Shown here piece by piece: positions 10,401-53,609 of a stretch of DNA of 64,000 bases. This stretch comes from Candidatus Limnocylindria bacterium (GTDB lineage Bacteria; Chloroflexota; Limnocylindria; QHBO01), in the NCBI GenBank assembly GCA_038253355.1, contig JBBSHF010000001.1, forward strand, positions 933 through 64,932, written 5' to 3'. The translations under genes were made by a program, and so were the position numbers. How positions within the stretch are numbered: position 1 is the first letter of the stretch; each line of letters starts with the position of its first letter. The notes below the pieces were generated by a model, which searched no databases, was not told where the DNA came from, and was given only the letters and a program-made list of their open reading frames with translations.

Positions 10401-10929
10401 AGAGCTGCTCGGACGACTGGACGCCGAGATCGCCGACAAGTTCAACCTGGCCTTCTCGGCGATCGGCGATCGCTTCGACGAGTTCTACCGGCTCCTCTTC
10501 GCCGGGGGTTCGGCGGCGCTGCAGATGAGCGACGACAGCGACGGCAGCGACGGAATCGACGGCGAGTCGCCTGGCGGTATCGAGATCGTGGTGCGTCCGC
10601 CCGGCAAGCGGCCGCAGCGACTGGCCATGCTCTCCGGTGGAGAGCGCGCGCTGACCGGCGTGGCGCTGCTCTTCGCCATGCTGAGCGTCAATCCAGTCCC
10701 GTTCTGCATTCTCGACGAGGTGGATGCTGCGCTCGACGAGGCGAACATCGGCCGCTTTGCCGATGCGCTGCGCAAACTCAGTGAGACGATCGACTTCGTG
10801 GTGATCACCCACAACCGCGCGACCATGGAGGTGGCCGACACGATCTACGGCGTGACCATGACCGATGCGGCCGTGAGCCGCATCCTGTCCCTGCGCCTGA
10901 CCGATCTGCCGGTCGAGGTGCATGCCTAG
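7411..10929 (+). CDS. smc: Chromosome segregation protein SMC
   Basis: N-terminal Walker A GPNGSGKSN; very long Ala/Arg/Glu-rich coiled coil; C-terminal LSGGERALTGVALLFAM...ILDEVDAALD signature. GTG start overlaps the rnc stop (GTGA). Confidence 0.9.
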   Translation: MSRLRELRLHGFKTFADPTRFVFEPGVNAVIGPNGSGKSNMADAVRWVLGEQSNRSLRTRRADDVIFAGSQHRQPQGMAEAVLTLDNADGWLPIDFGEVSIGRRAYRSGESEYLINGARARLRDVVELLGEGRLGANELVVVGQGTVDAALSLRPEERRQLFEEAAGVKGLQVRKNEAMARLAKARDNLTRITDLIGELRPQVRRLSAQAQHQQEHDGLLLHARALVGESHRRRERAARAGLGEVRRRAAAAEAALESLRAEQQAGQAEQQAAEERYWQAEAAARAAAEQRESTREALIRAESRSDAMAARREELRAAIELGDRELAAARRARAGLVEMAPEAEIAAVLARSTAAEGDWQGTIAMLAAADAELLAAEDALAEARLRDAERLAADARRRETLSATLARRERLERDLAAQGEMLARSQAAVEAARTALSAADAQEDAAHRRMLAVQAALATAQQAADATRLRAAQLAGQAETVRGELAALRERTEGGNRLGALLAAGGWSTLLDAVAAPEETWPAIEALVGGELGEALLWRDQELSGDLDVGRGVARLLAGGPAAAGRSAAAEREAALRAVGATRTVAEWAGAADVPAIFHRAVVAADLAALLRGWRDLPAGWSAVTVQGDLADARGVLTLRGRAEPAGGSAARAHARRRELAERMEALSAEELQAAATTEGAASELERLRRELAEVRHAHEEAERVTRRARAEADLVQANRERGEREAAELDTQLRRARAAEATAGSTPDARTPGDGQLDRLTLAVVEARRRRDTVAAERDSARAGWQEARAAAEAVETSSVGQRRERGLLEARVVQHEAALPTQRAVLATIEQESTTAGDLLAAAHTRDGLAARARAAADAERERLRAELLAKERGSGAAAARFGELERDAQASAIEASRQEDALSALERERELALESLPEADEPSTVGQSPESEDPQLFGMDEASLDTELRRVRRTLGQIGSVNPFAVEEHRELAARLDDVSTQDGDLRGAIGSTEELLGRLDAEIADKFNLAFSAIGDRFDEFYRLLFAGGSAALQMSDDSDGSDGIDGESPGGIEIVVRPPGKRPQRLAMLSGGERALTGVALLFAMLSVNPVPFCILDEVDAALDEANIGRFADALRKLSETIDFVVITHNRATMEVADTIYGVTMTDAAVSRILSLRLTDLPVEVHA

Positions 10930-11928
10930 ATGTTCCGCCGCCGCCGCACCGAAGGCGCGCCTCCGCCGGATGCGCCGGATGAGCCGCTGGCTGCCCAGCC
11001 GATGACCGTCGCGCGGCCGCGCCGCGAGCCGAGTGGCATGGGGCTGCGCGGCCGGCCGAGCGGCCTGGGTGCTCGCCTGCGCTCGATCCTGGGTGTCGCC
11101 ACTCCGGCTGGCGAGGCGACCTGGGACGAGATCGAGGAGGCGCTCATCGGCGCGGACGTCGGCCCGACGACCAGCCTGGAGCTGATCGACGCGGCGCGCG
11201 AGCGCTATCGGCGCAGCGGCGGCCGCACCGGCGACGACGTGCGCCGCCTTCTCGCCGACGAGGTCCGCGAGCGGCTCGAGCGAGTCGGCTCGGGACGCTT
11301 CGAGCTGGGTTCGGCACCATCGGTCATTCTCTTCGTGGGCGTCAACGGCACGGGCAAGACGACCACCATCGCCAAGCTGGCTGCGCGTCTGAAGGCGGAG
11401 GGTCACAGCCTGCTGCTGGCGGCGGGCGACACCTTCCGGGCGGCCGCGATCGAGCAGTTGCGCATCTGGGGCGAGCAGGTCGGCGTGCCCGTCGTCGCTC
11501 AGCGAGCCGGAGCCGATCCGAGCGCGGTCGCCTTCGATGCGTTGACGGCCGCCGAGTCGCGTGGCACCGAGGTGGTGCTGATCGACACCGCCGGGCGGTT
11601 GCACAACAAGACGCAGCTGATGGCCGAGCTGACCAAGATGCGGCGGGTGATCGAGCGGCGGCTGCCCGGCCAGCCGCGTCATGTGCTGCTGGTCCTGGAC
11701 GCGACGACCGGGCAGAACGGGCTCGCCCAGGCCGAGACGTTCAGCGCCGAGGCCGGGATCACCGGGATCGTGCTCACCAAGCTGGACGGGACCGCCAGGG
11801 CCGGCGTGGCGGTGGCCATCGCCAGCCGGCTGGGCGTGCCGATCGTCTTCGTCGGCGTCGGCGAGGAGCTCGACGCGCTCGCGCCGTTCGATCCCGCCTC
11901 GTACGTGGAGTGGCTCTTCGCCGCCTGA
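10930..11928 (+). CDS. ftsY: Signal recognition particle receptor FtsY
   Basis: SRP GTPase NG domain: GVNGTGKTTTIAKLA, DTFRAAA, DTAGR, TKLDGTA. Confidence 0.9.
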   Translation: MFRRRRTEGAPPPDAPDEPLAAQPMTVARPRREPSGMGLRGRPSGLGARLRSILGVATPAGEATWDEIEEALIGADVGPTTSLELIDAARERYRRSGGRTGDDVRRLLADEVRERLERVGSGRFELGSAPSVILFVGVNGTGKTTTIAKLAARLKAEGHSLLLAAGDTFRAAAIEQLRIWGEQVGVPVVAQRAGADPSAVAFDALTAAESRGTEVVLIDTAGRLHNKTQLMAELTKMRRVIERRLPGQPRHVLLVLDATTGQNGLAQAETFSAEAGITGIVLTKLDGTARAGVAVAIASRLGVPIVFVGVGEELDALAPFDPASYVEWLFAA

Positions 11929-12028
11929 GGGGCCCGACGCGTTGCCGCTCGACCCGACCGGTAGTAGCATGGGCCGCCGCGCGCCGGTCGCCCGGCGCGA
12001 CTGATTGTCAGCCCGCATCGGTCCACCC

Positions 12029-13363
12029 ATGTTCGAGTCCCTATCCGCGCGGCTGCAGAGCGTCACCGAGCGCCTCCGCGGCAAGGCGAAGATCACCGAG
12101 GCCGACCTCGACGTCGCGCTGCGCGAGATCCGCCTGGCGTTGCTGGAGGCGGACGTCAACTTCAAGGTCGTCAAGCCGTTCGTGGCGCATGTCCGCGAGC
12201 GCGCGCTCGGCAGCGAGGTCCTGACCGGGCTGCATCCCGGCCAACACGTCGTCAAGATCGTCCACGACGAGCTGGTTGCCACGCTCGGTGGGGAGCAGCA
12301 TGTCCTGCAGCTCGCCGAGAAACCGTCGGTTCTGATGCTGATCGGGCTGCAGGGATCGGGCAAGACGACGACCGCGGCCAAGCTGGCCGTGCGCCTGCGC
12401 CAGGAGGGCCGCAAGCCGCTGCTGGTGGCGGCCGATGTATACCGGCCCGCGGCCGTCGATCAGCTCGTGCAGCTCGGCGACCAGATCGGGATCGAGGTCC
12501 ATAGTCGCCCGCTCGGCACACCTGCGCTCGAGGTCGCGCGCAGCGGCCTCGAGGATGCTCGCCAGCGCGGCTTCGACCTCGTCATCGTGGACACCGCCGG
12601 GCGGCTGCACGTCGACGAGCCGATGATGGACGAGCTGGTGCGGATCGTCGGCGTGGTGACGCCGGCCGAGACGCTGCTGGTGGTCGACGCGATGACGGGC
12701 CAGGAAGCGGTGCGCGTGGCGGAGGCATTCCACGCTCGGCTGCCGGTCACCGGGCTGGTGCTCACCAAGATGGACGGCGACGCGCGCGGTGGCGCGGCGC
12801 TCTCGATTCGGCAGACGACCGGCCTGCCCATCAGCTTCATCGGTACCGGTGAACGGACCGACGGGCTCGAGCCGTTCCATCCCGACCGGCTCGCTCAGCG
12901 GATCCTGGGCATGGGTGACATCCTGTCGCTGGTCGAGCGCGTTCAGGAGAACGTCGACCAGGTGGAGGCAGAACGCGTCGCGCAGCGCATGATGGAGGCG
13001 CGCTTCACGCTCGAGGACTTCCGCAGCCAGCTGCAGCAGATCAAGAAGATGGGACCCATCGGCCAAGTGCTGCAGCTGATCCCCGGCGCCGGGCAGATGG
13101 CCAGTGCCGCGCAGCAGGCGGTCGACGACGGCCAGCTGAAGCGGATCGAGGCGGTCATCGACTCGATGACGACCCAGGAGCGCCGCCGTCCCGAGCTCAT
13201 CAAGGCCAGCCGTCGTCGGCGCATCGCGCTCGGCAGCGGCACTTCGACCGCGGAGGTCAACCGCGTGCTGAAGCAGTTCGGCGAGATGCAGCGCCTGATG
13301 AAGCAGCTCGGCGGCCGGCTGCCGAAGCTGGGCGGCGGCCTCAGCGGTCTCTTCGGTCGTTAG
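12029..13363 (+). CDS. ffh: Signal recognition particle protein Ffh
   Basis: MFESLSARLQ N-terminus, GLQGSGKTTTAAKLA, DTAGR, TKMDGDARGG, and an M-domain with the GMGD motif. Confidence 0.9.
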   Translation: MFESLSARLQSVTERLRGKAKITEADLDVALREIRLALLEADVNFKVVKPFVAHVRERALGSEVLTGLHPGQHVVKIVHDELVATLGGEQHVLQLAEKPSVLMLIGLQGSGKTTTAAKLAVRLRQEGRKPLLVAADVYRPAAVDQLVQLGDQIGIEVHSRPLGTPALEVARSGLEDARQRGFDLVIVDTAGRLHVDEPMMDELVRIVGVVTPAETLLVVDAMTGQEAVRVAEAFHARLPVTGLVLTKMDGDARGGAALSIRQTTGLPISFIGTGERTDGLEPFHPDRLAQRILGMGDILSLVERVQENVDQVEAERVAQRMMEARFTLEDFRSQLQQIKKMGPIGQVLQLIPGAGQMASAAQQAVDDGQLKRIEAVIDSMTTQERRRPELIKASRRRRIALGSGTSTAEVNRVLKQFGEMQRLMKQLGGRLPKLGGGLSGLFGR

Positions 13364-13380
13364 GGACGGTTCGGAGCCGC

Positions 13381-14946
13381 ATGCATCGCCTGGTCATCGC
13401 GCTCACCGCGCTCCTGACGCTGGCCGGCGCCGTGGTCGTCGGCGGCTACCTGGCCTTCTTCAGCGCATCGACCGATCGCGCCGCAGCGGCGGTCCCGGCC
13501 GATGCACCGATCTACCTGAGCATCTATCTGCAGCCTTCGGCCGGGCAGCAGATGAACCTCGGCCGGCTGATCGGCCGGCTGCCCGGCTTCGGCGACGAGG
13601 CCGCGCTGAACACCAAGATCGACGAGGCCGTGCAGCAGCTGCTGACGGGCCGCGGCTTCGACTATCGGCGTGACCTGAAGCCGTGGCTGGGCGACCAACT
13701 GGCCGTGGCGGTGACGCCGCAGGGTGCCAAACTGGGAGACGCGCAGGTGCTCGTGCTCGCCTCGGTCAAGGACCGCGCCGCAGCTGCTGCGGCGCTGGCG
13801 CGGCTGAGCTCAGTGGAGGGCGCCAAACCGTCAGAGGAGACGCATGCCGGCGTGACGCTGACCATCGGCCCATCGAACGCGTATGCATTCCTCGACGATG
13901 GCAGCCTGGTGGCTATCGGTCGCGATGCCGCACAGGTCAATGCAGCGATCGACGCCAGCTCGGGCGCACGTCCCTCGCTCGCCAAGCAGGCAGCCTTCGG
14001 TACGGCGATGGCCGCCCTGCCGAGCGATCGTCTCGCGTCGGCGTATCTCGATCTCGACCGCCTGGCCAGCGCGGCGGAGATGCCCGGTCAGCTCGAGGGG
14101 TTCTCGACCGCCAGCCTGGCGCTCGTTGCGCAGCCTGAGGGGGTCGAGCTGGTCGGGAGCGCGCCGTTCGACCAGCGCGTGGCGGGCCAATCGCAGCGCG
14201 CCGGCTTCGCGCTTTCGGGTGAGCCGTCCAGCCTCTCGGCCTGGATGCCAGCCACGACCCAGGCTGAGGCAGTGGTCTTCGGCCTGCGCGGCCTGCTGGA
14301 GAGCGCCGAAGCGCGCATCGGGCAGCAGCCGGGCGCCGAGAGCCTGGCGCAGAACATCACCCGGCTGCGGGCCATCGTGGCGTTCGGGCTGGGCCTCAAC
14401 GTCGATACGGACATCCTGCCGCTGCTCGACCGGGAGACCGGGCTGGCGTTGACCAGTGTCGGTCCGGGAGTACCGCGCGGCCAGCTGCTGCTGCGACCGA
14501 GCGACGCCGCGGCGGCGCAGCGGGCGCTGGAGCGCATCCGCGCGGCGCTCACCAGCCGCGGCGCACGGACGACGTTGCGGCAGGACGCCTCGGCGGTGAT
14601 CACCACCGTCGAGGTGCCACAGATCGGCAGCGTGTCGTACGCGCTCACCGATGGCGTCGTCGTCCTGGCCCTCATGCCCGATGACGTGGCTGCGGCATTG
14701 GCTGCCCGCGCCGGCGGCGAGGCGCTTGCCGGATCGGGTGGCTATCGGAGCACATTTGAGGCTGTGGGCGGTCGCGGCGGCAGCGAGCTGTACGTCGATC
14801 TTCCGCGCGCCCTGAGCGCGAGCGGGTTGCGAATCGACCTCCCGGCCCAGACACGCGATATGCTCACCCATGTCAGCGCGGTCGGATTGACGCTGCCCGC
14901 CCGCGCCGATCGCATCGAGTTTCATCTGATCGTGACCATCCACTGA
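13381..14946 (+). CDS. Membrane-anchored hypothetical protein (DUF3352-like)
   Basis: N-terminal TM helix (LVIALTALLTLAGAVVVGGYLAFF) followed by a large Ala-rich extracytoplasmic domain. Family assignment is from memory only. Confidence 0.5.
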   Translation: MHRLVIALTALLTLAGAVVVGGYLAFFSASTDRAAAAVPADAPIYLSIYLQPSAGQQMNLGRLIGRLPGFGDEAALNTKIDEAVQQLLTGRGFDYRRDLKPWLGDQLAVAVTPQGAKLGDAQVLVLASVKDRAAAAAALARLSSVEGAKPSEETHAGVTLTIGPSNAYAFLDDGSLVAIGRDAAQVNAAIDASSGARPSLAKQAAFGTAMAALPSDRLASAYLDLDRLASAAEMPGQLEGFSTASLALVAQPEGVELVGSAPFDQRVAGQSQRAGFALSGEPSSLSAWMPATTQAEAVVFGLRGLLESAEARIGQQPGAESLAQNITRLRAIVAFGLGLNVDTDILPLLDRETGLALTSVGPGVPRGQLLLRPSDAAAAQRALERIRAALTSRGARTTLRQDASAVITTVEVPQIGSVSYALTDGVVVLALMPDDVAAALAARAGGEALAGSGGYRSTFEAVGGRGGSELYVDLPRALSASGLRIDLPAQTRDMLTHVSAVGLTLPARADRIEFHLIVTIH

Positions 14947-30083: not shown

Positions 30084-30470
30084 ATGACCCAGCGCACGCG
30101 TCGGCTGGATAGCCAGATCCAGCAGGAGCTCATGGAGCTGCTGCAGCGCGAGATGAAGGATCCGCGCATCGGCTTCGCGACGATCACCCGCGTCGAGACG
30201 GCACGCGACCTGAGTTCGGCGCGGGTCTGGGTCAGCGTGCTCGGCAGCGAGGAGGAGCGCGAGCAGAGCATCGCGGCGCTCGTCGCTGCCGCTCCCTGGC
30301 TGCGCCGCCGCCTCGCCAGCCGGTTGACGCTGCGCAACGTGCCGCAGCTGGTCATGCGTCGCGACGAATCGATCGAGGCCGGCGACCGGGTCCTGCGCCT
30401 GCTGCGCGAGATCGAAGACGGCGATCATCCCGCGGACCCCGGTGACGACGATGCGGGGGCGCGGCCGTGA
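30084..30470 (+). CDS. rbfA: Ribosome-binding factor A
   Basis: RRLDSQIQQELMELLQREMKDPRIGFATITRVETARDLSSARVWVSVLG. Confidence 0.85.
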   Translation: MTQRTRRLDSQIQQELMELLQREMKDPRIGFATITRVETARDLSSARVWVSVLGSEEEREQSIAALVAAAPWLRRRLASRLTLRNVPQLVMRRDESIEAGDRVLRLLREIEDGDHPADPGDDDAGARP

Positions 30471-31450
30471 GCATGGCCGAGGTCGGGCGCCTCATCCGTG
30501 ACGCGCGGCGAGTGACCGCCATCTGCCATGAGAACCCCGATGCCGACACGCTCGGCGCGGGGATGGCCATTCGCCTCGCCGCCGAACGGCTGGGCAAGCA
30601 GGCCGAGGTGGTCTGCGCCGATCCGCCACCTCCGTTCCTGTCGTTCCTGCCGCGCATCGACGAGGTGCGCAGCGCGCCGGGCCTCGAGCCGGATGTCGCG
30701 GTGATCGTGGATGCCGGCGACCTGTCGCGCACCGGCAACATCGCTACCCAGCACGCCGAGTGGCTGGCGCGGGCCCAGATCGTGAACATCGACCATCACG
30801 TTTCCAACCCCGGCTTCGGAATTGCGCAGCTCATTGACCCCGATGCCGCGGCAACCTGTGAGCTGGTCGCGCTGCTGCTGCCCACGCTGGGTGTCCCGCT
30901 CGACGAGGAGATGGCGACCCTGCTGATGGCGGGGATTGTGCAGGATACGCACACCTTCGCCCATCCAAACGCCACGCCACGGACGCTGCGCGTGTCTGCC
31001 GAGCTGGTCGAGGCCGGCGCACCGCTGTCGGCGATCAACCGCGCCGTCTACGCCGACAAGCCGTACGCAACTCTTGCGCTGTGGGGGCTGATGCTGGCCA
31101 GCATCGGTCAGCGCTGCGACGGGCGGATCGTGTACGCCTCGATGACCGGCGCCATGCTTGCCCAGACCGGATCGCAACAGAACGCCTCGGAGGGCTTCGT
31201 GGACCTGCTCGGCTCGACCCGTGCGGCAGATGTGACGGTCCTGCTCAAGGAGGCCGAGCCGAGCGTAACCCGCGTGAGCGTGCGCACCACTCAGCGGGCC
31301 GATGCAGTGGCGATCACCGGCGCGTTCGGTGGCGGCGGCCACGCGCGCGCGGCCGGCTGCACGCTCGAGTCGCCGATCGACGAGGCGCGTGAGCGAGTCC
31401 TGGCCGAATGCGGGCGTGAGCTCGCCAGGGCCGATGCTCGGGGTCGTTAA
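30467..31450 (+). CDS. nrnA: DHH-family bifunctional oligoribonuclease/pAp phosphatase (NrnA-like nanoRNase)
   Basis: DHH motifs: HENPDADTLGAG, DAGD, NIDHHVSN; plus a DHHA1 GGGH motif. Confidence 0.8.
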   Translation: MSMAEVGRLIRDARRVTAICHENPDADTLGAGMAIRLAAERLGKQAEVVCADPPPPFLSFLPRIDEVRSAPGLEPDVAVIVDAGDLSRTGNIATQHAEWLARAQIVNIDHHVSNPGFGIAQLIDPDAAATCELVALLLPTLGVPLDEEMATLLMAGIVQDTHTFAHPNATPRTLRVSAELVEAGAPLSAINRAVYADKPYATLALWGLMLASIGQRCDGRIVYASMTGAMLAQTGSQQNASEGFVDLLGSTRAADVTVLLKEAEPSVTRVSVRTTQRADAVAITGAFGGGGHARAAGCTLESPIDEARERVLAECGRELARADARGR

Positions 31451-33335: not shown

Positions 33336-33367
33336 GCGTCGGTTAGGAAACGAATGTGGAGGAACGT

Positions 33368-33637
33368 GTGCCGCTCGCCCAGGACGCGAAGAGCGCGATC
33401 GTCGATGACTACGCCACGCATGATGGCGATACCGGTTCCCCGGAGGTGCAGATCGCGCTTCTCACCGAGCGGATCCAGTCGCTGACGGAGCACCTGCGCA
33501 CTTACCAGAACGACAACCATTCGCGTCGTGGTCTGCTCAAGCTCGTCGGCCAGCGCCGGCGCCTCTTGGCCTACCTGGTCCGCAATGACGTGGACCGTTA
33601 TCGCGCGGTGATCGGTCGACTGGGGCTGCGTCGCTAA
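33368..33637 (+). CDS. rpsO: 30S ribosomal protein S15
   Basis: GTG start (GGAGG RBS at 33358-33362) gives the S15-length N-terminus. [20 protein letters not shown]; [13 protein letters not shown]. Confidence 0.9.
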
Positions 33638-33841
33638 TCAACCCCGCCTGCTCACGACCCAAGCGCCGTCCAGGCCCTGGGTTTCGCCATTTCGGCATCG
33701 AACCGCCGAACCGAGCGCAGCTCCCGCGCAATTACCCGAGGAGCAGCGTCCGTCAGACCGCCGCCCGCCCCCTTGCCGAGCAAGGAAGGTGCACGGGCCG
33801 TGCGCCGGACGTGAACCACCATCAGATCATTGGAGGAATCA

Positions 33842-36454
33842 GTGGCAATCAACGTTGAGGCCGAGATCGGCAACCAGAGCTTCTCACTCGAGGCTGGCAG
33901 GCTTGCCGAACAGGCCGATGGAGCGGTGCTGGTGCGCTACGGCGACACCATGGTGCTGGCAACTGCCGTGGCGAGCAAAGAGCCGCGTGAGGGGACGGAC
34001 TTCTTCCCGCTCACGATCGATTACGAGGAGCGGATGTACGCCGCGGGCAAGATCCCGGGCGGCTTCATCAAGCGCGAGTCGCGCCCATCGGAGGCGGCCA
34101 TCCTGGCCATGCGCCTCACCGACCGGCCGATCCGGCCCCTCTTCCCGAAGGGCTACCGCAACGACGTGCAGGTCGTCCTGACCGTCCTCTCCGCCGACCA
34201 GGAGAACGATCCGGACATCCTCGCGCTCAATGGCGCGTCGGCGGCGCTCTCGATCAGCAACATCCCGTTCATGGGACCCGTCGGCGCCGTGCGCGTCGGC
34301 TACATCGATGGCCGGTTCGTGACCAACCCGACGACCAGCCAGTTGGCCGAGAGCCAGCTCGACCTCGTGGTGGCGGGTACCCGCGACGCGGTGATGATGG
34401 TCGAGGCCGGCGCCAAGATCCTGCCCGAGGCGGTCATGGCCGACGCCATCGACTACGGGCAGCGCGAGCTGCAGAAGAGCATCGACCTGCAGGAAAAGCT
34501 GGTCGCCACGGCCGGGACGCCCAAGAAGCTGCCGTTCATCGGTCCGAAGGCGGACTCGGTGGCCAAGCTGGGCAAGGCCCTGGGCAGCGGCGCGGCAGAC
34601 TTCGTGGTCTTCGACCTGGAGACAACCGCCATGAAGCCGGGGAACGGCTACATCGTCGACATCGCCGCACTGCGCGTGCGTGACGGCCAGGTGGTCGATC
34701 GCTTCGAGTCGCTCGTGAATCCGGGCAGCTCGATCGTCGGGCACCAGGTGCACGGCATCTCGGACGAGGACGTCTCGAACGCGCCGACGGCCGCCGAGAT
34801 CCTGCCGAAATTCGCCGAGTGGGTTGGCGACGCGGCACTGGTCGCGCACAACGTCAGCTTCGATCTGCCATTCGTGCTGCGTCACCTGCCGACCGACATC
34901 AAGTGGGAGCCCAGCGCGGTCTACGACACGCTGGAGCTGGCGTACCAGCTCTATCCGGAAGCCGGAAGCTACAAGCTCGCCGACCTCGTCCGCTTCGTGT
35001 TCGGGCGCGAGCACCAGGCGGCGCATCGTGCCATGCCAGACGCGCAGGCCACGGCCGACCTGTTCATCGACCTGACCAAGGGCCTGTCCGGGCGCCTGGA
35101 CGCGGTGCGCGGCGATATCGCCGCCGAGATCCGCCGCGGACGCGAGGGTTACAACCGCTCCGAACAGGGGCAGCGCATGGAGGATATCCGGCGCCGCCAC
35201 GGCATCGGCAAGGACCTGATGGACGTGCTGACCAAGGGCACCGTGCGTGAGCTGGTGCTCTCCGAGGGGGTGCGTCTCGACGGTCGCGACACAACCACCA
35301 TCCGCCCCATCAGCGTGGAGGTCGGCATCCTGCCGCGGACCCACGGCTCGGGCCTCTTCACCCGCGGACAGACGCAGGTCCTGTCGATCGCCACGCTCGG
35401 CCCGTCGAGCGACGTGCAGCGCCTCGACACCATCTCGCCCGAGACGGAGAAGCGCTACATCCACCACTACAACATGCCGCCCTACTCGGTCGGCGAGGCC
35501 AAGTTCATGCGCGGCCCCGGCCGTCGCGAGATCGGGCATGGTGCCCTCGCCGAGCGGGCGCTGCTGCCGGTCCTGCCAACCGTCGACGAGTTCCCGTACG
35601 TCATCCGCGTGGTGAGCGAGGCGGTGAGCAGCAACGGCTCGACCTCGATGGCGTCCACCTGCGGCAGCACGCTTGCCCTGATGGACGCCGGCGTGCCCAT
35701 CAAGGCGCCGGTGGGCGGCGTGGCGATGGGCCTCATCAGCGACCAGGCCACTGGCCGCCATGCGGTGCTCACCGACATCAGCGGCAAGGAAGACGCCTAC
35801 GGCGACATGGACTTCAAGGTGACCGGCACGTCCGAGGGCGTCACGGCGCTGCAGATGGACATCAAGACCGCCGGCATCACGCCGGAGATCATGCGCAATG
35901 CGCTCGAGCAGGCTCGCCTGGGTCGGCTTTTCATCCTGGACAAGATGACCGCCACGATCAGCGCCAGCCGCAGTGAGCTGAGCCAGTACGCGCCGCGGAT
36001 CATCACCATCAAGATCCCGATCGACAAGATCCGCGACGTCATCGGCGCGGGTGGCAAGGTGATTCGCCAGATCACCGCTGAGACCGGCACCCAGATCAAC
36101 GTCGAGGACGACGGCACGATCCAGATCGCGTCGACCTCGAGCGAGGCCTCCGACAAGGCAGTGCGCTGGATCGAGGGCCTGACGCGTGACGTCGAGGTTG
36201 GCAAGGAGTACCTCGGCAAGGTGACCCGGATCATGAACTTCGGTGCCTTCGTCGAGATCCTGCCCGGCAAGGAGGGACTGGTGCACATCAGCCAGCTCGC
36301 CGATTACCGGGTGCCGCGCGTCGAGGACGTGGTCAGCATCGGCGACGAGCTGATGGTGGTCGTGACCGAGATCGACCGGATGGGCCGCGTCAACCTGTCG
36401 CGGCGCGCCGCCATGGAGCGTCACATGGCCAAGGCGGGCGCGGGCCAGTCCTAG
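33842..36454 (+). CDS. pnp: Polyribonucleotide nucleotidyltransferase (PNPase), with a DnaQ/RNase T-like DEDDh 3'-5' exonuclease domain inserted in the inter-core helical domain
   Basis: Both RNase PH cores are present ([26 protein letters not shown]...; [10 protein letters not shown]...[35 protein letters not shown]), followed by KH and S1 domains. Start is GTG 33842 after the GGAGGAA RBS. Length is ~870 aa against a typical ~710 aa. Confidence 0.9.
34583..35075 (+). other. In-frame DEDDh (DnaQ-like / RNase T-Orn-like) exonuclease domain embedded in pnp (residues ~252-415 in the frame numbered from TTG 33830)
   Basis: Exo [11 protein letters not shown] (D262, E264), Exo [15 protein letters not shown] (D345), Exo [17 protein letters not shown] (H399, D404). 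Flanked by the PNPase helical-domain sequence on both sides. Confidence 0.8.
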
Positions 36455-36461
36455 ACCGATG

Positions 36462-36487
36462 GGTGCGGCGCCATGCGGCGCCGCACC
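36462..36487 (+). terminator. Perfect 11-bp GC-rich hairpin (GGTGCGGCGCC-atgc-GGCGCCGCACC), 8 nt after the pnp stop codon
   Basis: Read directly. No U-tract, so this is either a GC-type terminator or an RNase III / 3'-protective stem. Confidence 0.4.
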
Positions 36488-36520
36488 ACGCAACCGCACC
36501 ACGGAGGGCGGCACAGCTCG

Positions 36521-37186
36521 ATGAGCACCGAGGCGCTGCTCGAAAGGGTCGCCGAGGAGGCTCGCGACTGCACGCGCTGCGCCCTCAGCGCACGACGAAC
36601 CCGCGCGGTCCCCGGTGAGGGCAACCCGCTCTCCTATGTGCTGCTGGTCGGCGAGGGTCCTGGCGCGCGCGAGGACGCAACCGGGCGTCCGTTCGTGGGG
36701 CCGGCGGGCCAGGTGCTCGACGAGCTGCTGCACAGCATCGGCTGGGCGAGGTCGGACGTGTTCATCACCAACGTGGTGAAATGCCGGCCGCCCGGTAACC
36801 GCGACCCGGAGCCCGGCGAGGTTGCCGCCTGCGGGGCGTTCCTGGAACGACAGGAGGCCGCGCTGGATCCCGCGGTGATCGTCACCCTTGGGCGCGTGTC
36901 GCTGCAGGCCTACCTGCCCGGCTCGCGGATTTCATCGGTGCATGGTCAGGTTCGAAGATCGGGCGGACGCTACATCTTTCCGATGTACCATCCTGCGGCG
37001 GCGTTGCACCAGGCTTCGTTGCGGGAGACGCTCTTCCGCGATATCGGCAGGCTGCCCGCGGCGCTGCATGACGCCCGACAGGCCATGGGGGCCGAGCGGG
37101 TGGCATCGGTCAAGACAATCCAGGTCGAGGCATCGTCCGCCGCCGAACAACACCCCGACGACCAGCAACAGCTGACTCTCTTCTAG
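36521..37186 (+). CDS. udg: Uracil-DNA glycosylase, family 4 (4Fe-4S type)
   Basis: CTRCALS...GEGPGAREDATGRPFVGPAGQVLDELL...NVVKCRPPGNRDPEPGEVAACGAFL family-4 motifs. Start at the conserved M after GGAGGG. Confidence 0.8.
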   Translation: MSTEALLERVAEEARDCTRCALSARRTRAVPGEGNPLSYVLLVGEGPGAREDATGRPFVGPAGQVLDELLHSIGWARSDVFITNVVKCRPPGNRDPEPGEVAACGAFLERQEAALDPAVIVTLGRVSLQAYLPGSRISSVHGQVRRSGGRYIFPMYHPAAALHQASLRETLFRDIGRLPAALHDARQAMGAERVASVKTIQVEASSAAEQHPDDQQQLTLF

Positions 37187-37193
37187 GAGCACC

Positions 37194-38858
37194 ATGGCAG
37201 ACACCCTGCGCATTATCCCGCTCGGCGGGGTGGGCGAGGTCGGGAAGAACATCACCGTCATCGAGGCGTCCGGGGAGATCCTGGTCGTCGATTGCGGGCT
37301 CGCCTTCCCCGAGCCGGAGATGCTCGGCATCGACCTCGTCATCCCCGACGTCACCTACCTGGAACAGAACCGCGACCGGGTGCGCGCCATCTTCATCACG
37401 CACGGCCACGAGGACCACACCGGCGCGCTGCCGTACGTCCTGCCCAAGGTCCCCGGCACGCCGATCTACGCCACCCGGCTCACCCAGGGGCTGATCACCG
37501 GCAAGCTCAAGGAGCACCACCTGCTCGAGATGACGACGCAGCACGAGGTCGAGCCAGGGGTCGAGGTCGGCATCGGCGCATTCAAGGTCATCCCCTTTCG
37601 CGTCAATCACTCGATCCCCGATGGCGTTGGCTACGCCATCCGCACGCCGCTCGGCACCGTGGTCCATACCGGCGACTTCAAGTTCGACCTGAACCCGCCC
37701 GATGGCCGACGCGCCGACCTGGGGCTGATCGCCGAGATCGGCAACGCGGGGGTCGAGTTTCTGCTCTCCGACTCGACGCGGGCCGAGAGGGAGGGCTACA
37801 CCCTCTCGGAGTCGACCGTGGGCGTCTCGCTTGATCGCCTCATCGGCGAGGCGCCGGGACGGGTGATCGTGGCCACCTTCGCCAGCAACATCGGTCGGGT
37901 GCAGCAGGTGGTCGACGCCGCGGCGGCGCACGGTCGCAAGATGGTCGCCCTGGGCCGCAGCATGGAGCAGAACACGGCGATCGCGGTGGAGCTCGGCTAC
38001 CTCGACCCGCGAGACGGCACACTGGTGCGCAAGGACCAGCTGCAACGGCTTGCCAAGGAGAAGCTGGTGGTGATGACCACCGGTTCGCAGGGTGAGCCGA
38101 TGTCCGGGCTGACGCGCATGAGCAACCGCGACCACCGTAACGTGAGCATCGAGCCGGGCGACACGGTCATCGTCTCCGCCTCGCCGATCCCCGGCAACGA
38201 GGAGGCGGTGGCCAAGACGATCGACAACCTGTTCAAGGAAGGCGCCATGGTGATGTACGAGCCGCTGCAGCACTGCCATGTCTCGGGCCACGGCTCGCGC
38301 GAGGAGCTGAAGCTCATGCTCGGCCTGGTCAAGCCGCGCCACTTCATCCCGGTGCACGGCGAGTACCGCATGCTCGTGCAGCACGCTCTGCTGGCCGAGG
38401 GCGCAGGGGTCGACGTCGACAAGATCTTCGTACTGGAGAACGGCCAGAAGGTCGAGTTCGACGGGCAGCGTGCACGCCTGGCGGGCAGCGTGCCGGCCGG
38501 CGCGGTGCTGGTCGACGGGCTGGCCACCATCGACGGTGTCGACGGGGTGATCCTGCGCGATCGGCGCATGCTGGCCAGCGACGGCGTGGTGATGGTGGCC
38601 CTGACGGTCGATACCCGCACCGGGCAGCCGATCAGCGGCCCCGACCTGCTGGGGCGTGGCTTCCTCTCGGATCCAGACGATCCGATCATGGAGGCAGCGC
38701 GCGCGCACCTGGCCGATGCGCTGCGCCAGGCGCCCAAGGATGATCACACCGCCGAGGCAGGCTACCTCAAGACCAAGATTCGCGACATCCTGTCGCGCTT
38801 CTTCTTCGACCGCACCAAGCGTCGGCCCATGATCCTGCCCATCGTCATGGAGGTGTAG
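37194..38858 (+). CDS. rnj: Ribonuclease J
   Basis: Metallo-beta-lactamase motif ITHGHEDHTGALPYVL, plus beta-CASP and C-terminal domains. 554 aa. Confidence 0.9.
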   Translation: MADTLRIIPLGGVGEVGKNITVIEASGEILVVDCGLAFPEPEMLGIDLVIPDVTYLEQNRDRVRAIFITHGHEDHTGALPYVLPKVPGTPIYATRLTQGLITGKLKEHHLLEMTTQHEVEPGVEVGIGAFKVIPFRVNHSIPDGVGYAIRTPLGTVVHTGDFKFDLNPPDGRRADLGLIAEIGNAGVEFLLSDSTRAEREGYTLSESTVGVSLDRLIGEAPGRVIVATFASNIGRVQQVVDAAAAHGRKMVALGRSMEQNTAIAVELGYLDPRDGTLVRKDQLQRLAKEKLVVMTTGSQGEPMSGLTRMSNRDHRNVSIEPGDTVIVSASPIPGNEEAVAKTIDNLFKEGAMVMYEPLQHCHVSGHGSREELKLMLGLVKPRHFIPVHGEYRMLVQHALLAEGAGVDVDKIFVLENGQKVEFDGQRARLAGSVPAGAVLVDGLATIDGVDGVILRDRRMLASDGVVMVALTVDTRTGQPISGPDLLGRGFLSDPDDPIMEAARAHLADALRQAPKDDHTAEAGYLKTKIRDILSRFFFDRTKRRPMILPIVMEV

Positions 38859-42503: not shown

Positions 42504-42522
42504 CGGAGCAAGATAGGGAGTC

Positions 42523-43011
42523 ATGGCAGAGTCTTCGTTCGACGTCGTCAGCGAGTTCGATCAGCAGGAGCTGGTCAACGCGCTCGACCAGGTGCGCCGC
42601 GAGCTCGCGACGCGCTACGACCTCAAGAGCAGCAAGTCGTCACTGGAGCTGGGCAAGGAAGAGGTCACGCTGCAGACCGACGATGAGTACCACGCCACTG
42701 CGATCAAGGATCTCGTGCAGACGAAGGCAGTGCGCCGTGGCCTCTCGCTGAAGATCTTCGACTGGGGCAAGATCGAGCCGGCGGCAGGCGGCACGGTGCG
42801 CCAGCACATCGGCCTCAAGCGAGGGCTGACCAGCGAGCAGGCCAAGGAGCTGTCGAAGAGGATCCGCGACCAGTTTCCCAAGGCCAAGCCCTCGGTGCAG
42901 GGTGATTCGGTGCGGGTCAGCGCCAAAAGCAAGGACGAGCTGCAGTACGTGATCGCCTTCCTGCGCGAGCTCGACTACGCGGTCGAGCTGCAGTTCCAGA
43001 ACTACCGCTAG
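42523..43011 (+). CDS. yajQ: YajQ/UPF0234 family nucleotide-binding protein
   Basis: SFDVVSEFDQQELVNALDQVRRELATRYDLK signature. 162 aa. Confidence 0.85.
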   Translation: MAESSFDVVSEFDQQELVNALDQVRRELATRYDLKSSKSSLELGKEEVTLQTDDEYHATAIKDLVQTKAVRRGLSLKIFDWGKIEPAAGGTVRQHIGLKRGLTSEQAKELSKRIRDQFPKAKPSVQGDSVRVSAKSKDELQYVIAFLRELDYAVELQFQNYR

Positions 43012-50551: not shown

Positions 50552-51889
50552 TCAGCGACGCGCGGAGCGCGTTCCGCCGGGGCGACGACCGGCGGAATCG
50601 AGCTCAGCGGCGATCGCCTGCGGCAGGTGGCCCGAGATGCGAACGCCGCCGGGGAGGTAGTGCTCCTTCACGTCGCCGCTGGTGCGTGCCCGTGCCACGA
50701 GCTCGCCGCGCTCGTACGGGATCAGCGCGTCGACCGCGACCATCTGCTCTCGGAGCACGTTGGCGATCTGCTGCAGCAGGCCGGGCAGGCCCTCGCCGTC
50801 GGCGGCGCTCACGTAGGCGACCCGATCGCTGAGCGGCATCGGCACCCCCTGGCGGGCCACATCGAGGAGGTCGATCTTGCTGAACACCGCGATGCGCGGC
50901 TTGTCGCCGGCGCCCAGCTCGATGAGCACCGCCTGCACGGCTGCCTGCTGGCCCACGAAGTCGGCATCGGCGGCGTCGACCACCTCCAGCAGCAGGTCGG
51001 CGCGCAGCACCTCCTCGAGCGTGGCGCGGAAGGCGTCGATCAGGTCGTGCGGGAGCTTGTTGATGAATCCCACGGTATCGGTCATGACCACGTGCTGGCC
51101 CGAGGGAAGCACCACCCGCCGGGAGGTCGGATCGAGTGTGGCGAATGGCATGTCGGCGGCATATACGTTGGCGTTGGCGAGCGCGTTGAGCAGCGTGCTT
51201 TTCCCGGCATTGGTGTAGCCCACCAGGGCGACCGTGGGTACCTGCTTGCGCTCACGTTGGCGTGCAGCGGTCGACCGATGGCGCTTCACGGTCTCCAGCT
51301 CAGCGCGAAGCCTGCGGATCTTCTCGCCGATCAGCCGCCGGTCGGTCTCGAGCTGGCTCTCGCCGGGTCCCCGGGTACCGATGCCGCCGCCCGTGCGCGA
51401 CAGGTGCGTCCACAGGCGGGTCAGCCGCGGAAGGTGATACTCGAGCTGGGCCAGCTCGACCTGCAGACGGCCCTCGCGGGTGCGCGCGTGGCGGGCGAAG
51501 ATGTCGATGATCAGCGCCGAACGGTCCAGGACCTTGCAGTCGAGCAGCTTTTCCAGGTTGCGCTGCTGATTCGGTGACAGCTCGTCGTCGACAACCAGCA
51601 CGTTGAAGTCGCTGGACGCCTTCTCATCGAGCAGCTCGGCGGCACGGCCCTTGCCGAAGTAGTAGCCGGGATCCGGCTGGGGCCGGCGCTGGAAGGCGCT
51701 GCCCACCACGCTCGCGCCGGCGGTTTCGGCCAGTGAAGCGAGCTCGGCCAGGCTCCGTGAGATCGGCCAGCTGCCGTGGTGTGGGTCGTCGAGCCCGATG
51801 AGAAACGCGCGCTCATCGGCCGCCGTGAGGTCGATCATGCGGTTTGGGTCGGTCATATCGGTCAATTCATGGTAGCCGATGCGGCGCAC
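50552..51889 (-). CDS. hflX: GTPase HflX
   Basis: VALVGYTNAGKSTLLNALA G1 motif, DTVGF, and an HflX N-terminal domain. Start uncertain; alternative M codons lie downstream. Confidence 0.85.
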   Translation of the reverse strand: MRRIGYHELTDMTDPNRMIDLTAADERAFLIGLDDPHHGSWPISRSLAELASLAETAGASVVGSAFQRRPQPDPGYYFGKGRAAELLDEKASSDFNVLVVDDELSPNQQRNLEKLLDCKVLDRSALIIDIFARHARTREGRLQVELAQLEYHLPRLTRLWTHLSRTGGGIGTRGPGESQLETDRRLIGEKIRRLRAELETVKRHRSTAARQRERKQVPTVALVGYTNAGKSTLLNALANANVYAADMPFATLDPTSRRVVLPSGQHVVMTDTVGFINKLPHDLIDAFRATLEEVLRADLLLEVVDAADADFVGQQAAVQAVLIELGAGDKPRIAVFSKIDLLDVARQGVPMPLSDRVAYVSAADGEGLPGLLQQIANVLREQMVAVDALIPYERGELVARARTSGDVKEHYLPGGVRISGHLPQAIAAELDSAGRRPGGTRSARR

Positions 51890-51971
51890 CGGTACCTTTC
51901 ACCCACTATTGCTTTGTGAGCCGGAGGACCATGATCAGGCCCAGCAGGAACGCGCCGCAGCTGAGGTGAAG

Positions 51972-53609
51972 ATGGATAACCGCGACGCTGTACCGGGGAG
52001 CGACGGCTCGCACGCGCACCTGCGGCCGACCCTGATGCGCCTGCAGCTGGTCGCGGCGATCGCACTGAGCGGTCTGGTTGGCCTCAGCATCGAGCGTTTC
52101 TTCAGCCTGCTCGTCCCCGGCTCCGCGACGCTGGCGGCGCTCTGCGCGTTGGCGGGCATGCTGCTCACCGGCGCGGCGGTGGCGCCCATTGCGCTCGTCC
52201 CGCTGCGGCGTTTGACCGAGGACCTGCAGGTCCGCTACGAAATCGCCTTGGCCGACGCCCTGTCCGATGGCCTGACCAGGCTGGGCAATCATCGCGCATT
52301 CCAGGAGGAGCTCGATCGACAGGTCGAGCAGGCCTTGCGCTATGGGGCGCCGCTTGCCCTGGTGCTCATCGACCTCGACGACTTCAGGGCGGTGAACGAT
52401 GCGGTGGGCCATGTCGGCGGAGATCACGCGCTGACCCGCACGGGACGTGTCGTGGAGGCTTCGATTCGCCGCCCGGACCGCGCATTTCGGATCGGGGGCG
52501 ACGAGTTCGCCTTGCTGCTTCCGCACGCTGACGCGGATGGGGCGCGGGTCGTGGCCCGCCGACTGCTGGCGGCCTCGCTTCAGCCGGGCAGGGCAGCCGA
52601 CGGCCTGTCCGAAGGGCTCTCCTTCTCGGCTGGTATCTCGACGATCCCCGCGTTCGCGGCCAACCGGAGCGAGCTGCACGCCCAGGCCGATGCCGCGCTG
52701 TACGCTGCCAAGCGCGCCGGACGGACCATCGTGGAGGTATTCGAGCCGTCGATCAGCCCTGCGCTGCCGTTGACCGATGCGTCGGCCGCCGTGGCCGAGC
52801 TGATCGCGCGGAACCAGATGCTCGGTGTCTACCAACCGGTTGTCGATCTGTCTAACGGCGGGATCATCGGCTACGAAGGCCTGACGCGTCCGCAGCCGCC
52901 GTCGCCGTTCGAGACTCCAGCGCAGTTGTTCGATGCCGCCGAGGCGAGCGGCCGGGTCATGGCACTCGATCTCGCCTGCGCCGAAGAGCTGGTTCACGGA
53001 GCGCGCTTTTTGCCGCCCACCCAGTTTCTGAGCGTCAACCTCTCACCGACGACCATCGAGGCACCCGAGTTCGGGGCATCGAGCATGCTCGCCATCCTGG
53101 CCCGGCACAACTTCCCGCCAGCTCAGTTGGTGATCGAGCTCACCGAGCGCGAGTCGATCACGGACATGGTGCTCCTGCGCAAGAAGCTCGAGGACTGCCG
53201 CCGCGCGGGCATTCGCCTGGCGGCCGATGACATCGGCGCCGGGAACTCGGGCCTGCGCCTGCTCAGCGAGCTTCGCTTCGACATCCTCAAGGTCGACCTC
53301 GGGCTGGTGCAGCGCAGCGCGGCCGATGGCCTGTCGAGCGCCGTGGTGCGCTCGGTGGTGGATCTTGCCGCACGGACCGCTGCGCTGGTCATCGCGGAGG
53401 GCGTCGAGGACGATCGGCAGCTGGTACAGGTCGCCGCGCTGGGGATCACGGCTGCCCAGGGATACCTGCTCGGCCGGGGGGGTCCCCTGCCCGTCCGCGG
53501 TCGGCGATCGGCCCCCGTGGTCGAAGAGCCTGCCGAAGATCTCGGCCCGCACGCGGCCTGGCGGCAGTCGATCGGCCTCTCCGGGGCGACCCTGCCGATC
53601 CGCGTCTAG
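51972..53609 (+). CDS. Membrane-anchored GGDEF-EAL protein (diguanylate cyclase / phosphodiesterase; EAL motif reads EGL)
   Basis: Two N-terminal TM helices. RIGGDEFALLL (GGDEF intact). EAL domain: YEGLTR, DDIGAGNSGL, QGYLLGRG. RBS GAGGTGAAG. Confidence 0.8.
   Translation: MDNRDAVPGSDGSHAHLRPTLMRLQLVAAIALSGLVGLSIERFFSLLVPGSATLAALCALAGMLLTGAAVAPIALVPLRRLTEDLQVRYEIALADALSDGLTRLGNHRAFQEELDRQVEQALRYGAPLALVLIDLDDFRAVNDAVGHVGGDHALTRTGRVVEASIRRPDRAFRIGGDEFALLLPHADADGARVVARRLLAASLQPGRAADGLSEGLSFSAGISTIPAFAANRSELHAQADAALYAAKRAGRTIVEVFEPSISPALPLTDASAAVAELIARNQMLGVYQPVVDLSNGGIIGYEGLTRPQPPSPFETPAQLFDAAEASGRVMALDLACAEELVHGARFLPPTQFLSVNLSPTTIEAPEFGASSMLAILARHNFPPAQLVIELTERESITDMVLLRKKLEDCRRAGIRLAADDIGAGNSGLRLLSELRFDILKVDLGLVQRSAADGLSSAVVRSVVDLAARTAALVIAEGVEDDRQLVQVAALGITAAQGYLLGRGGPLPVRGRRSAPVVEEPAEDLGPHAAWRQSIGLSGATLPIRV

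Follow-up and report, generated by a model that had tools for sequence, protein, structure and literature searches.

The DNA analysed here, referred to as the window, is a 64-kb stretch (64,000 nucleotides) of a contig from a Candidatus Limnocylindria bacterium, and its subject is the pnp gene, whose product is a polynucleotide phosphorylase (PNPase) with a predicted DEDDh-type 3′-5′ exonuclease domain embedded in it. The organism belongs to an uncultured soil lineage of Chloroflexota, and the Limnocylindria fusion is known here from metagenome-assembled sequences alone. The gene order around pnp is nusA-infB-rbfA-nrnA-truB-ribF-rpsO-pnp, a conserved translation and RNA-metabolism operon, and the fusion gene is the housekeeping pnp of the organism. 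The open reading frame (ORF) is uninterrupted at 33830..36454 on the forward strand and encodes 874 amino acids if counted from the first TTG. A Shine-Dalgarno motif, GGAGGA, is present at 33832-33837, directly 5′ of the GTG at 33842 (TTGGAGGAATCAGTG). Because of this motif, and because most homologs of the pnp product begin with VAIKVEAEIG, the true start is probably GTG 33842, which gives a product of 870 amino acids. Residue numbers in this text are counted from TTG 33830, and a start at GTG 33842 would shift all of them by −4.

The identity of the host enzyme was assessed with NCBIfam models. The results showed that the product exceeded the cut-offs of TIGR03591 (969.4 bits against 525) and NF008805 (967.7 against 471), in each case as two stretches broken by the insert. 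The PNPase domain order, namely first RNase PH core, all-alpha domain, second RNase PH core, KH and S1, was present as judged by Pfam, alignment and four predicted helices. The first RNase PH core carries a GGFIKRE loop at residues 77-83, the counterpart of the FFRR loop of Escherichia coli PNPase. In the second core, the phosphate-site motif G-S-T-S-M occupies residues 603-607, D655, D661 and K663 are the counterparts of the E. coli metal-site residues D486, D492 and K494, T605/S606 correspond to the phosphate-binding S438/S439, and R565/R566 (R398/R399 in E. coli) are also present; the roles of the E. coli catalytic residues are taken from published work (PMC2723993). D655, D661, K663, T605/S606 and R565/R566 were invariant in 121 of the 121 full-length sequences compared, and the phosphorolytic site is, as judged from the sequence, intact.

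The Pfam scan gave the order RNase_PH (residues 18-146), RNase_PH_C (149-212), RNase_T/PF00929 (259-412), a second RNase_PH stretch, KH (725-782) and S1 (788-859). The initial annotation, made from the sequence alone, had proposed a pnp product of about 870 amino acids with an in-frame insert of about 160 amino acids at 34583-35075, and had named a hidden Markov model (HMM) scan beforehand as the test of it. PF00929 does fall between the two RNase PH cores, and those coordinates correspond to residues 252-415, that is, to the insert. When the intact protein was compared with the solved PNPase 5yjj, the alignment fell into two blocks, with residues 12-242 and 464-860 matching residues 23-251 and 313-707. 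When residues 257-416 were deleted in silico, the resulting protein of 714 amino acids formed one collinear stretch with 5yjj (713 amino acids), 4nbq (715) and 4am3 (717); the deleted version aligned over residues 12-700 to residues 23-707 of 5yjj, with 748 bits compared to 741 for the intact protein. Since deletion of residues 257-416 restores a single collinear PNPase alignment, the insertion is a clean one: exactly one 160-residue module has been added to PNPase, and nothing of PNPase has been lost. The proposed length and in-frame insert were thus confirmed by the ORF, the Pfam scan and the in-silico deletion.

To place the insert within the all-alpha domain, the structure of residues 236-480 was predicted with AlphaFold2 (AF2) from an alignment of 78 sequences. 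The model had a predicted local distance difference test score (pLDDT) of 95 and a predicted template modelling score (pTM) of 0.90, and it contained a helix at residues 241-252, followed by a five-stranded alpha/beta exonuclease fold and then by three long helices at residues 419-479. Because the model puts one helix before the insert and three after it, the insert is predicted to fall into the loop that joins the first two helices of the all-alpha domain. The initial placement within the helical region between the two cores was therefore right, while its placement at the N-terminal edge of that region was not. The Pfam model of the all-alpha domain, PF03726, remained below its threshold (20.7 bits against a cut-off of 24.6) and matched the last helix only, so that the evidence for a retained helical domain comes from the collinear alignment and from the structure model. 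The positions of all features are collected in Table 1.

Table 1. The pnp locus of the window: parts of the fusion gene and neighbouring genes (window positions; residue numbers counted from TTG 33830)
Feature	Position	Strand	Evidence or remark
pnp, PNPase-DEDDh fusion	33842..36454	+	Likely start GTG 33842; mechanical ORF opens at TTG 33830; TIGR03591, 969 bits against a cut-off of 525
First (non-catalytic) RNase PH core	33881..34465	+	RNase_PH residues 18-146, RNase_PH_C residues 149-212
Helix 1 of the all-alpha domain, residues 241-252, directly upstream of the insert	34550..34585	+	AF2 secondary structure; collinear alignment after in-silico deletion
Inserted, predicted DEDDh (DnaQ/PolC/DinG-type) 3′-5′ exonuclease domain, residues 257-416	34598..35077	+	PF00929, TIGR00573, 2p1j, AF2, Foldseek
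Predicted catalytic codons of the insert	D262 34613-34615; E264 34619-34621; D345 34862-34864; H399 35024-35026; D404 35039-35041	+	
Helices 2-4 of the all-alpha domain, residues 419-479, downstream of the insert	35084..35266	+	AF2; collinear alignment
Second (catalytic) RNase PH core, residues ~481-710	35270..35959	+	Rrp41 model match at residues 475-698; alignment to solved PNPases
KH (residues 725-782) and S1 (788-859), RNA-binding domains	36002..36406	+	Pfam
DHH/DHHA1 (NrnA-type) gene	30446-31450		Upstream of pnp, same operon
rpsO	33356-33637		Upstream of pnp
UDG gene (family-4-type; UDG superfamily)	36473-37186		Directly 3′ of pnp
RNase J gene	37194-38858		Downstream of the UDG gene

The insert matched PF00929 with 93.9 bits (cut-off 24; E 2e-26) over positions 1-164 of the 164-position profile, and TIGR00573, the model of the DnaQ/epsilon-family exonuclease domain, with 79.2 bits against a cut-off of 71.5. 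All of the DEDDh motifs are present, namely Exo I FDLETT (D262, E264), Exo II HNVSFD (D345) and Exo III HRAMPD of the form H-x4-D (H399, D404), with the five residues exactly where the initial annotation had them. Among the NCBIfam models, the insert gave its best scores with the exonuclease parts of actinobacterial DEDD-GIY-YIG proteins, DinG and PolC. The whole-protein cut-offs of the corresponding families failed, with 79 against 222.7 for TIGR01406 (epsilon), 123 against 873 for NF001688 (PolC) and 124 against 789 for NF005981 (DinG), indicating that the exonuclease domain alone is shared with these proteins. A sequence search of the Protein Data Bank gave 11 matches at E ≤ 0.001, of which the closest was the PolC exonuclease of Thermotoga (2p1j, E 1e-22); the others included PolC (9qpc), Staphylococcus aureus DinG (8zef), the Pol III epsilon subunit, a CRISPR Cas2-DEDDh protein and ExoX.

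A Foldseek search with the AF2 model ranked DinG, PolC, a DnaQ domain and epsilon first (probability 1.00; root mean square deviation (rmsd) 2.0-2.5 Å over about 170 columns), with the S. aureus DinG exonuclease as the top match (E 1e-12), and ExoX and ExoI were also among the nearest relatives of the insert in sequence or fold. In an exhaustive search, the closest non-PNPase relatives among the matches listed were about 40-45% identical to the insert, and these were small stand-alone exonucleases or exonucleases fused to BRCT, GIY-YIG/UVR, helicase or PolC modules. The insert is therefore assigned, from its sequence and predicted structure, an RNase H-like alpha/beta fold of the DnaQ/PolC/DinG-like kind, that is, of the DNA-polymerase-proofreading type. 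Of the earlier label ‘DnaQ / RNase T / Orn-like’, the DnaQ part agrees with 2p1j, DinG, epsilon and TIGR00573 being nearest, and the RNase T/Orn part does not. Neither RNase T nor Orn was found in the top 25 NCBIfam models or among the 11 matches in the Protein Data Bank, and RNase T appeared only at rank 26 of the Foldseek search with 23% identity; an RNase T/Orn identity was rejected on these three grounds.

The distribution of the fusion was examined in public sequence collections. The results showed that PF00929 and the PNPase domains occur together in all of the 120 best full-length database matches (84-95% identical, 860-915 amino acids). These proteins stem from NCBI, JGI, ENA and Logan assemblies and from many independent metagenomes, and their taxon, where the source gives one, is Candidatus Limnocylindria or Chloroflexota. 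Intact fused reading frames were also seen in the independent metagenome-assembled genome (MAG) loci L002, L003, L004, L006 and L009, as well as in L010. The naming of the same full-length protein differs between databases, being mostly ‘DNA polymerase III epsilon subunit family exonuclease’ in JGI and ‘polyribonucleotide nucleotidyltransferase’ in the PGAP annotation of NCBI; neither name conveys the dual architecture of sequences that are public in hundreds.

The DEDDh residues, like those of the phosphorolytic site, were invariant in 121 of 121 full-length sequences. Across these sequences, the mean identity to the window residue was 0.82 in the insert, 0.88 in the RNase PH cores and 0.70-0.74 in the flanking helical segments. 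The ratio of nonsynonymous to synonymous substitution rates (dN/dS; Nei-Gojobori method, 15 locus pairs) was 0.14 in the insert, 0.12-0.13 in the RNase PH cores and 0.19 in the helical segments. The insert is under purifying selection.

A more distant form of the fusion was obtained when 1.84 billion cluster representatives were searched exhaustively with HMMER and the best 150 matches were listed. This protein, P0241 (864 amino acids), was 38% identical in one stretch, with query positions 2-287 matching protein positions 198-481. The cluster to which it belongs (P0241/P0383) has a Pfam order identical to that of the window protein, and it includes proteins named Candidatus Limnocylindrus sp., a freshwater branch. 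The Ca. Limnocylindrus locus L010 has the order nusA-infB-rbfA-nrnA-truB-ribF-rpsO-pnp, followed by asd, the uracil-DNA glycosylase (UDG) gene, the RNase J gene and ftsK. Between the window and Ca. Limnocylindrus, the insert is 39% identical and the catalytic RNase PH core 72% identical, the junctions are gap-free, the position is the same and all DEDDh residues are kept. Since two branches with only 39% identity in the insert share junctions, position and operon, the event is ancient, and a single insertion in the ancestor of the class Limnocylindria (Chloroflexota) is the simplest reading of the sequences. The guanine-plus-cytosine (GC) content of the insert is 0.66 and that of its third codon positions (GC3) is 0.89, compared to 0.65-0.71 and 0.91-0.93 in the rest of the gene. 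The match in GC and GC3 and the divergent Ca. Limnocylindrus branch bear out the initial description of an old, ameliorated insertion, and the architecture of the fusion and its antiquity are held with very high confidence.

A profile search returned more fragments of divergent fusions, most of them without a taxon name; the few that are named are Chloroflexota or Limnocylindria, apart from P0004, which is labelled Solirubrobacterales. In addition, an 85%-identical copy (L001, JAICUY010000040.1) was found on a contig that binning had assigned to Steroidobacteraceae (Gammaproteobacteria). Because of their identity to Limnocylindria sequences, L001 and the Solirubrobacterales-labelled fragment are probably mis-binned contigs rather than cases of horizontal transfer.

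In the core structures of E. coli PNPase, the helical domain is dynamic and is found on the side of the ring that faces away from S1 and KH. [quoted passage not shown] The insert sits within the helical domain, which agrees with the earlier proposal that it is on the helical-domain face of the trimer. The fusion protein presumably forms the usual PNPase trimer, which would carry three phosphorolytic sites inside the channel and three DEDDh sites on the other face, away from the KH/S1 entrance, with the DEDDh sites adjoining the side pores that lead to each phosphorolytic site. A conserved basic motif, which might contact nucleic acid close to the side pore, is present in the helix that follows the insert (residues 447-455; nucleotides ~35168-35194); the close clade has E-D-x-R-R-R-H there, and the divergent clade has A-A-R-R-x-A-R/K.

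An ancestral Limnocylindria pnp acquired a DnaQ/PolC-type DEDDh domain, and the residues of both active sites are intact. In the scheme proposed here, the DEDDh domain would work as an active, metal-dependent hydrolytic 3′-5′ exonuclease on the single-stranded 3′ ends that PNPase handles. Its candidate substrates would be RNA remnants or tails that phosphorolysis leaves unfinished; it might also be used when phosphate is scarce and PNPase would otherwise run in reverse, and a hydrolytic site would free the enzyme from its dependence on phosphate. The outcome would be a one-polypeptide counterpart of an RNase PH ring to which a hydrolytic exonuclease is attached. The insert is likely to be catalytically active. 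That the protein is a bifunctional, phosphorolytic and hydrolytic 3′-5′ exonuclease, with the hydrolytic site serving the 3′ ends, most likely of RNA, that PNPase handles, is proposed with moderate confidence. RNA has about an even chance of being the main substrate and DNA a distinctly smaller one, RNA being somewhat more likely than DNA. An RNA substrate is plausible because the host enzyme, the operon and the retained KH and S1 domains all point to RNA. Furthermore, related DEDDh domains hydrolyse RNA: DinG acts on RNA in hybrids, and S. aureus DinG degrades single-stranded RNA with Mg2+ (PMC12525004). Some coupling between the DEDDh and phosphorolytic sites may be supposed. A closer form of coupling, in which a 3′ end threaded through the RNase PH ring, or a limit oligonucleotide leaving via the side pore, is handed to the distal DEDDh site as in an exosome with its hydrolase, is doubtful.

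Several observations weigh against this proposal. The closest relatives of the insert are all DNA enzymes (PolC, DinG, epsilon, and the GIY-YIG and BRCT fusions), a kinship that speaks for DNA as the substrate, at least originally. The hydrolytic sites would lie on the face away from the RNA entrance, and it is not evident that a threaded 3′ end would pass to them directly. An NrnA-type nanoRNase gene is present in the pnp operon, so that oligonucleotide clean-up does not obviously need the DEDDh domain and a pure nanoRNase role is less necessary. In addition, the full-length AF2 model had a pLDDT of 63 overall with poor RNase PH cores; these were of low confidence as the alignment had no diverse PNPases, and the model, which was confident for residues 241-480 only, was used for that region alone.

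The strongest of the other explanations is that the insert is a DNA 3′-5′ exonuclease that equips PNPase for DNA repair by trimming the 3′ ends of single-stranded DNA where strands are broken or forks have stalled. The nearest relatives by sequence and fold, the PolC and DinG exonucleases, Pol III epsilon, ExoX and ExoI, are consistent with it, as are the GIY-YIG/UVR, BRCT, helicase or PolC modules carried by the nearest free-standing or fused relatives. Bacterial PNPases are reported to process single-stranded DNA 3′ ends phosphorolytically in double-strand-break repair, and the enzymes of Bacillus subtilis and E. coli both degrade and extend such ends and act in this repair (PMC3241651); a DNA exonuclease in the insert would broaden this activity. 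A family-4-type UDG gene also adjoins pnp or lies near it in both deep branches. However, asd lies between pnp and the UDG gene in Ca. Limnocylindrus, which makes the adjacency weak evidence for DNA, and it may be mere inherited gene order. The fusion gene also sits in a classical translation and RNA-metabolism operon, near rpsO and the RNase J gene, its product has kept KH and S1, and the sugar specificity of DEDDh enzymes is loose, as the activity of DinG on RNA in hybrids illustrates (PMC12525004). A role in DNA repair has a chance well short of even.

It is improbable that the insert is no longer a nuclease and serves as a structural, 3′-end-binding or regulatory module, for instance by gating the side pore or recruiting partners. 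The host domain is dynamic and lines a pore thought to control the access of phosphate and NDPs (PMC2723993), and the pTM of the AF2 model suggests rigid packing of the insert with the helices, both of which would suit such a module. However, the five DEDDh residues are invariant in 121 of 121 sequences and kept at 39% identity, which would be unexpected for a non-catalytic scaffold.

The chance that the fusion is an artefact or a recent event, whether a pseudogene with a frameshift, a recent mobile or selfish element, or a chimera in which assembly joined a dnaQ-like gene to pnp, is negligible: several database entries are indeed truncated or split, but these splits occur in long-read MAGs, the 120 intact fusions come from NCBI, JGI, ENA and Logan assemblies, the junctions are alike in two branches whose inserts share only 39% identity, and GC3 matches the host gene with a dN/dS of 0.14. 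An assembly chimera or pseudogene was rejected on the intact frames in the window and in independent assemblies, as the initial annotation had judged, and a recent or mobile insertion on GC3, dN/dS and the junctions, which are the same in both deep branches. An initial search that used the insert as query had returned only proteins shorter than 510 amino acids, some of them on megabase-scale contigs. Split pnp calls were seen in the long-read MFD MAG contigs L005 and L008, and they yield the fragments shorter than 510 amino acids that fill the protein databases. In L008, pnp is called as two overlapping pieces of 472 and 419 amino acids. The split calls look like sequencing frameshifts in long-read MAGs, since the RNase J gene of L008 is truncated too.

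The fusion was further compared with known systems. Canonical PNPases (E. coli, Caulobacter crescentus and the S. aureus group; TIGR03591) share with it the RNase PH cores, KH, S1, the catalytic residues and the place after rpsO, and differ in that the fusion has the 160-amino-acid DEDDh domain added after the first helix of the all-alpha domain and before the second; a DEDDh insert was found in none of the solved PNPases matched in the structure-database searches. The PolC exonuclease (2p1j, 9qpc) is the closest solved relative of the insert, with 32-33% identity and an rmsd of 2.2 Å over 168 columns. It is itself nested within the PHP domain of PolC, indicating that this type of domain is known to tolerate internal insertion, and in both cases the DEDDh domain would work as a nested insertion in a host domain. 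The hosts differ: that of PolC is a replicative DNA polymerase, with the exonuclease proofreading DNA, whereas the host here is a phosphorolytic ribonuclease. DinG of S. aureus and B. subtilis has an N-terminal DEDD exonuclease and an XPD-like helicase, so that a DnaQ-type domain is fused to a nucleic-acid enzyme in both DinG and the fusion, and degradation of an RNA strand is documented for this domain type; however, the DinG fusion is terminal with a helicase as partner, whereas here the domain is nested in PNPase (NF005981, 124 against 789). RNase T and Orn belong to the same DEDDh superfamily and have the same five catalytic residues, but are not the closest subfamily.

The eukaryotic and plant RNA exosome realizes the same concept, with an Exo9 RNase PH ring and S1/KH cap combined with the hydrolytic Rrp6 (DEDD) and Rrp44. 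Rrp44 is located on the face of the exosome ring opposite the cap, as is the helical domain in PNPase. The exosome differs in that its nucleases are separate subunits of other families (DEDDy for Rrp6, RNB for Rrp44), whereas a DEDDh domain lies in the same chain here, and the resemblance is one of functional analogy and not of homology of the fusion. The ring of the plant exosome is still phosphorolytic (PMC5735172).

Full-text literature searches, which left most subscription journals outside, found no published description of a PNPase with an embedded exonuclease, in agreement with the initial remark that no PNPase of this architecture was known, and no paper that pairs Limnocylindria with an RNase term. 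The fusion joins two well-known domains in a combination that is new and stable, but it is not a new kind of system. PNPase is among the most conserved and best-studied enzymes of RNA decay, with a domain plan that is uniform in every solved structure matched here, and Limnocylindria maintain by selection a variant in which a hydrolytic exonuclease, as predicted, is housed within a phosphorolytic enzyme. Provided that the insert is active, this would be, as far as the literature search showed, the first bacterial enzyme found to join both chemistries in one chain, and it would offer a natural experiment on why cells pair RNase PH rings with hydrolytic nucleases, as in eukaryotic and plant exosomes. 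If the doubtful hand-over to the distal DEDDh site were true, one trimer could switch between phosphorolysis and phosphate-independent hydrolysis and so degrade RNA completely, a possible adaptation of Limnocylindria to their source soils and freshwaters, provided that phosphate is scarce there. The fusion also gives a handle on the RNA (or DNA-end) metabolism of Limnocylindria, which recur in many independent public metagenome assemblies. Of practical concern is that the public annotation is inconsistent and that many entries are frameshift fragments.

The neighbouring nrnA and UDG genes were present as initially annotated (Table 1). The UDG gene lies directly 3′ of pnp in the window and in L009, and asd intervenes in Ca. 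Limnocylindrus (L010, 8672-10424); the order UDG-RNase J-FtsK-RodZ-like is common to both deep branches. In L011 (ERZ18644595 scaffold_554, 9800-14595), a part of nusA followed by infB-rbfA-nrnA-truB is repeated after pnp-asd, which is either a tandem operon duplication or an assembly artefact. The rpsO-pnp leader (33638-33841, 204 nucleotides) folded no better than shuffled sequence (z −1.07), and scans of the whole window detected no Rfam families or tRNA genes. Further downstream, and unrelated to the fusion, are genes for a DUF520 (YajQ-like) protein at 42517-43011 and a GGDEF-EAL protein at 51876-53609.

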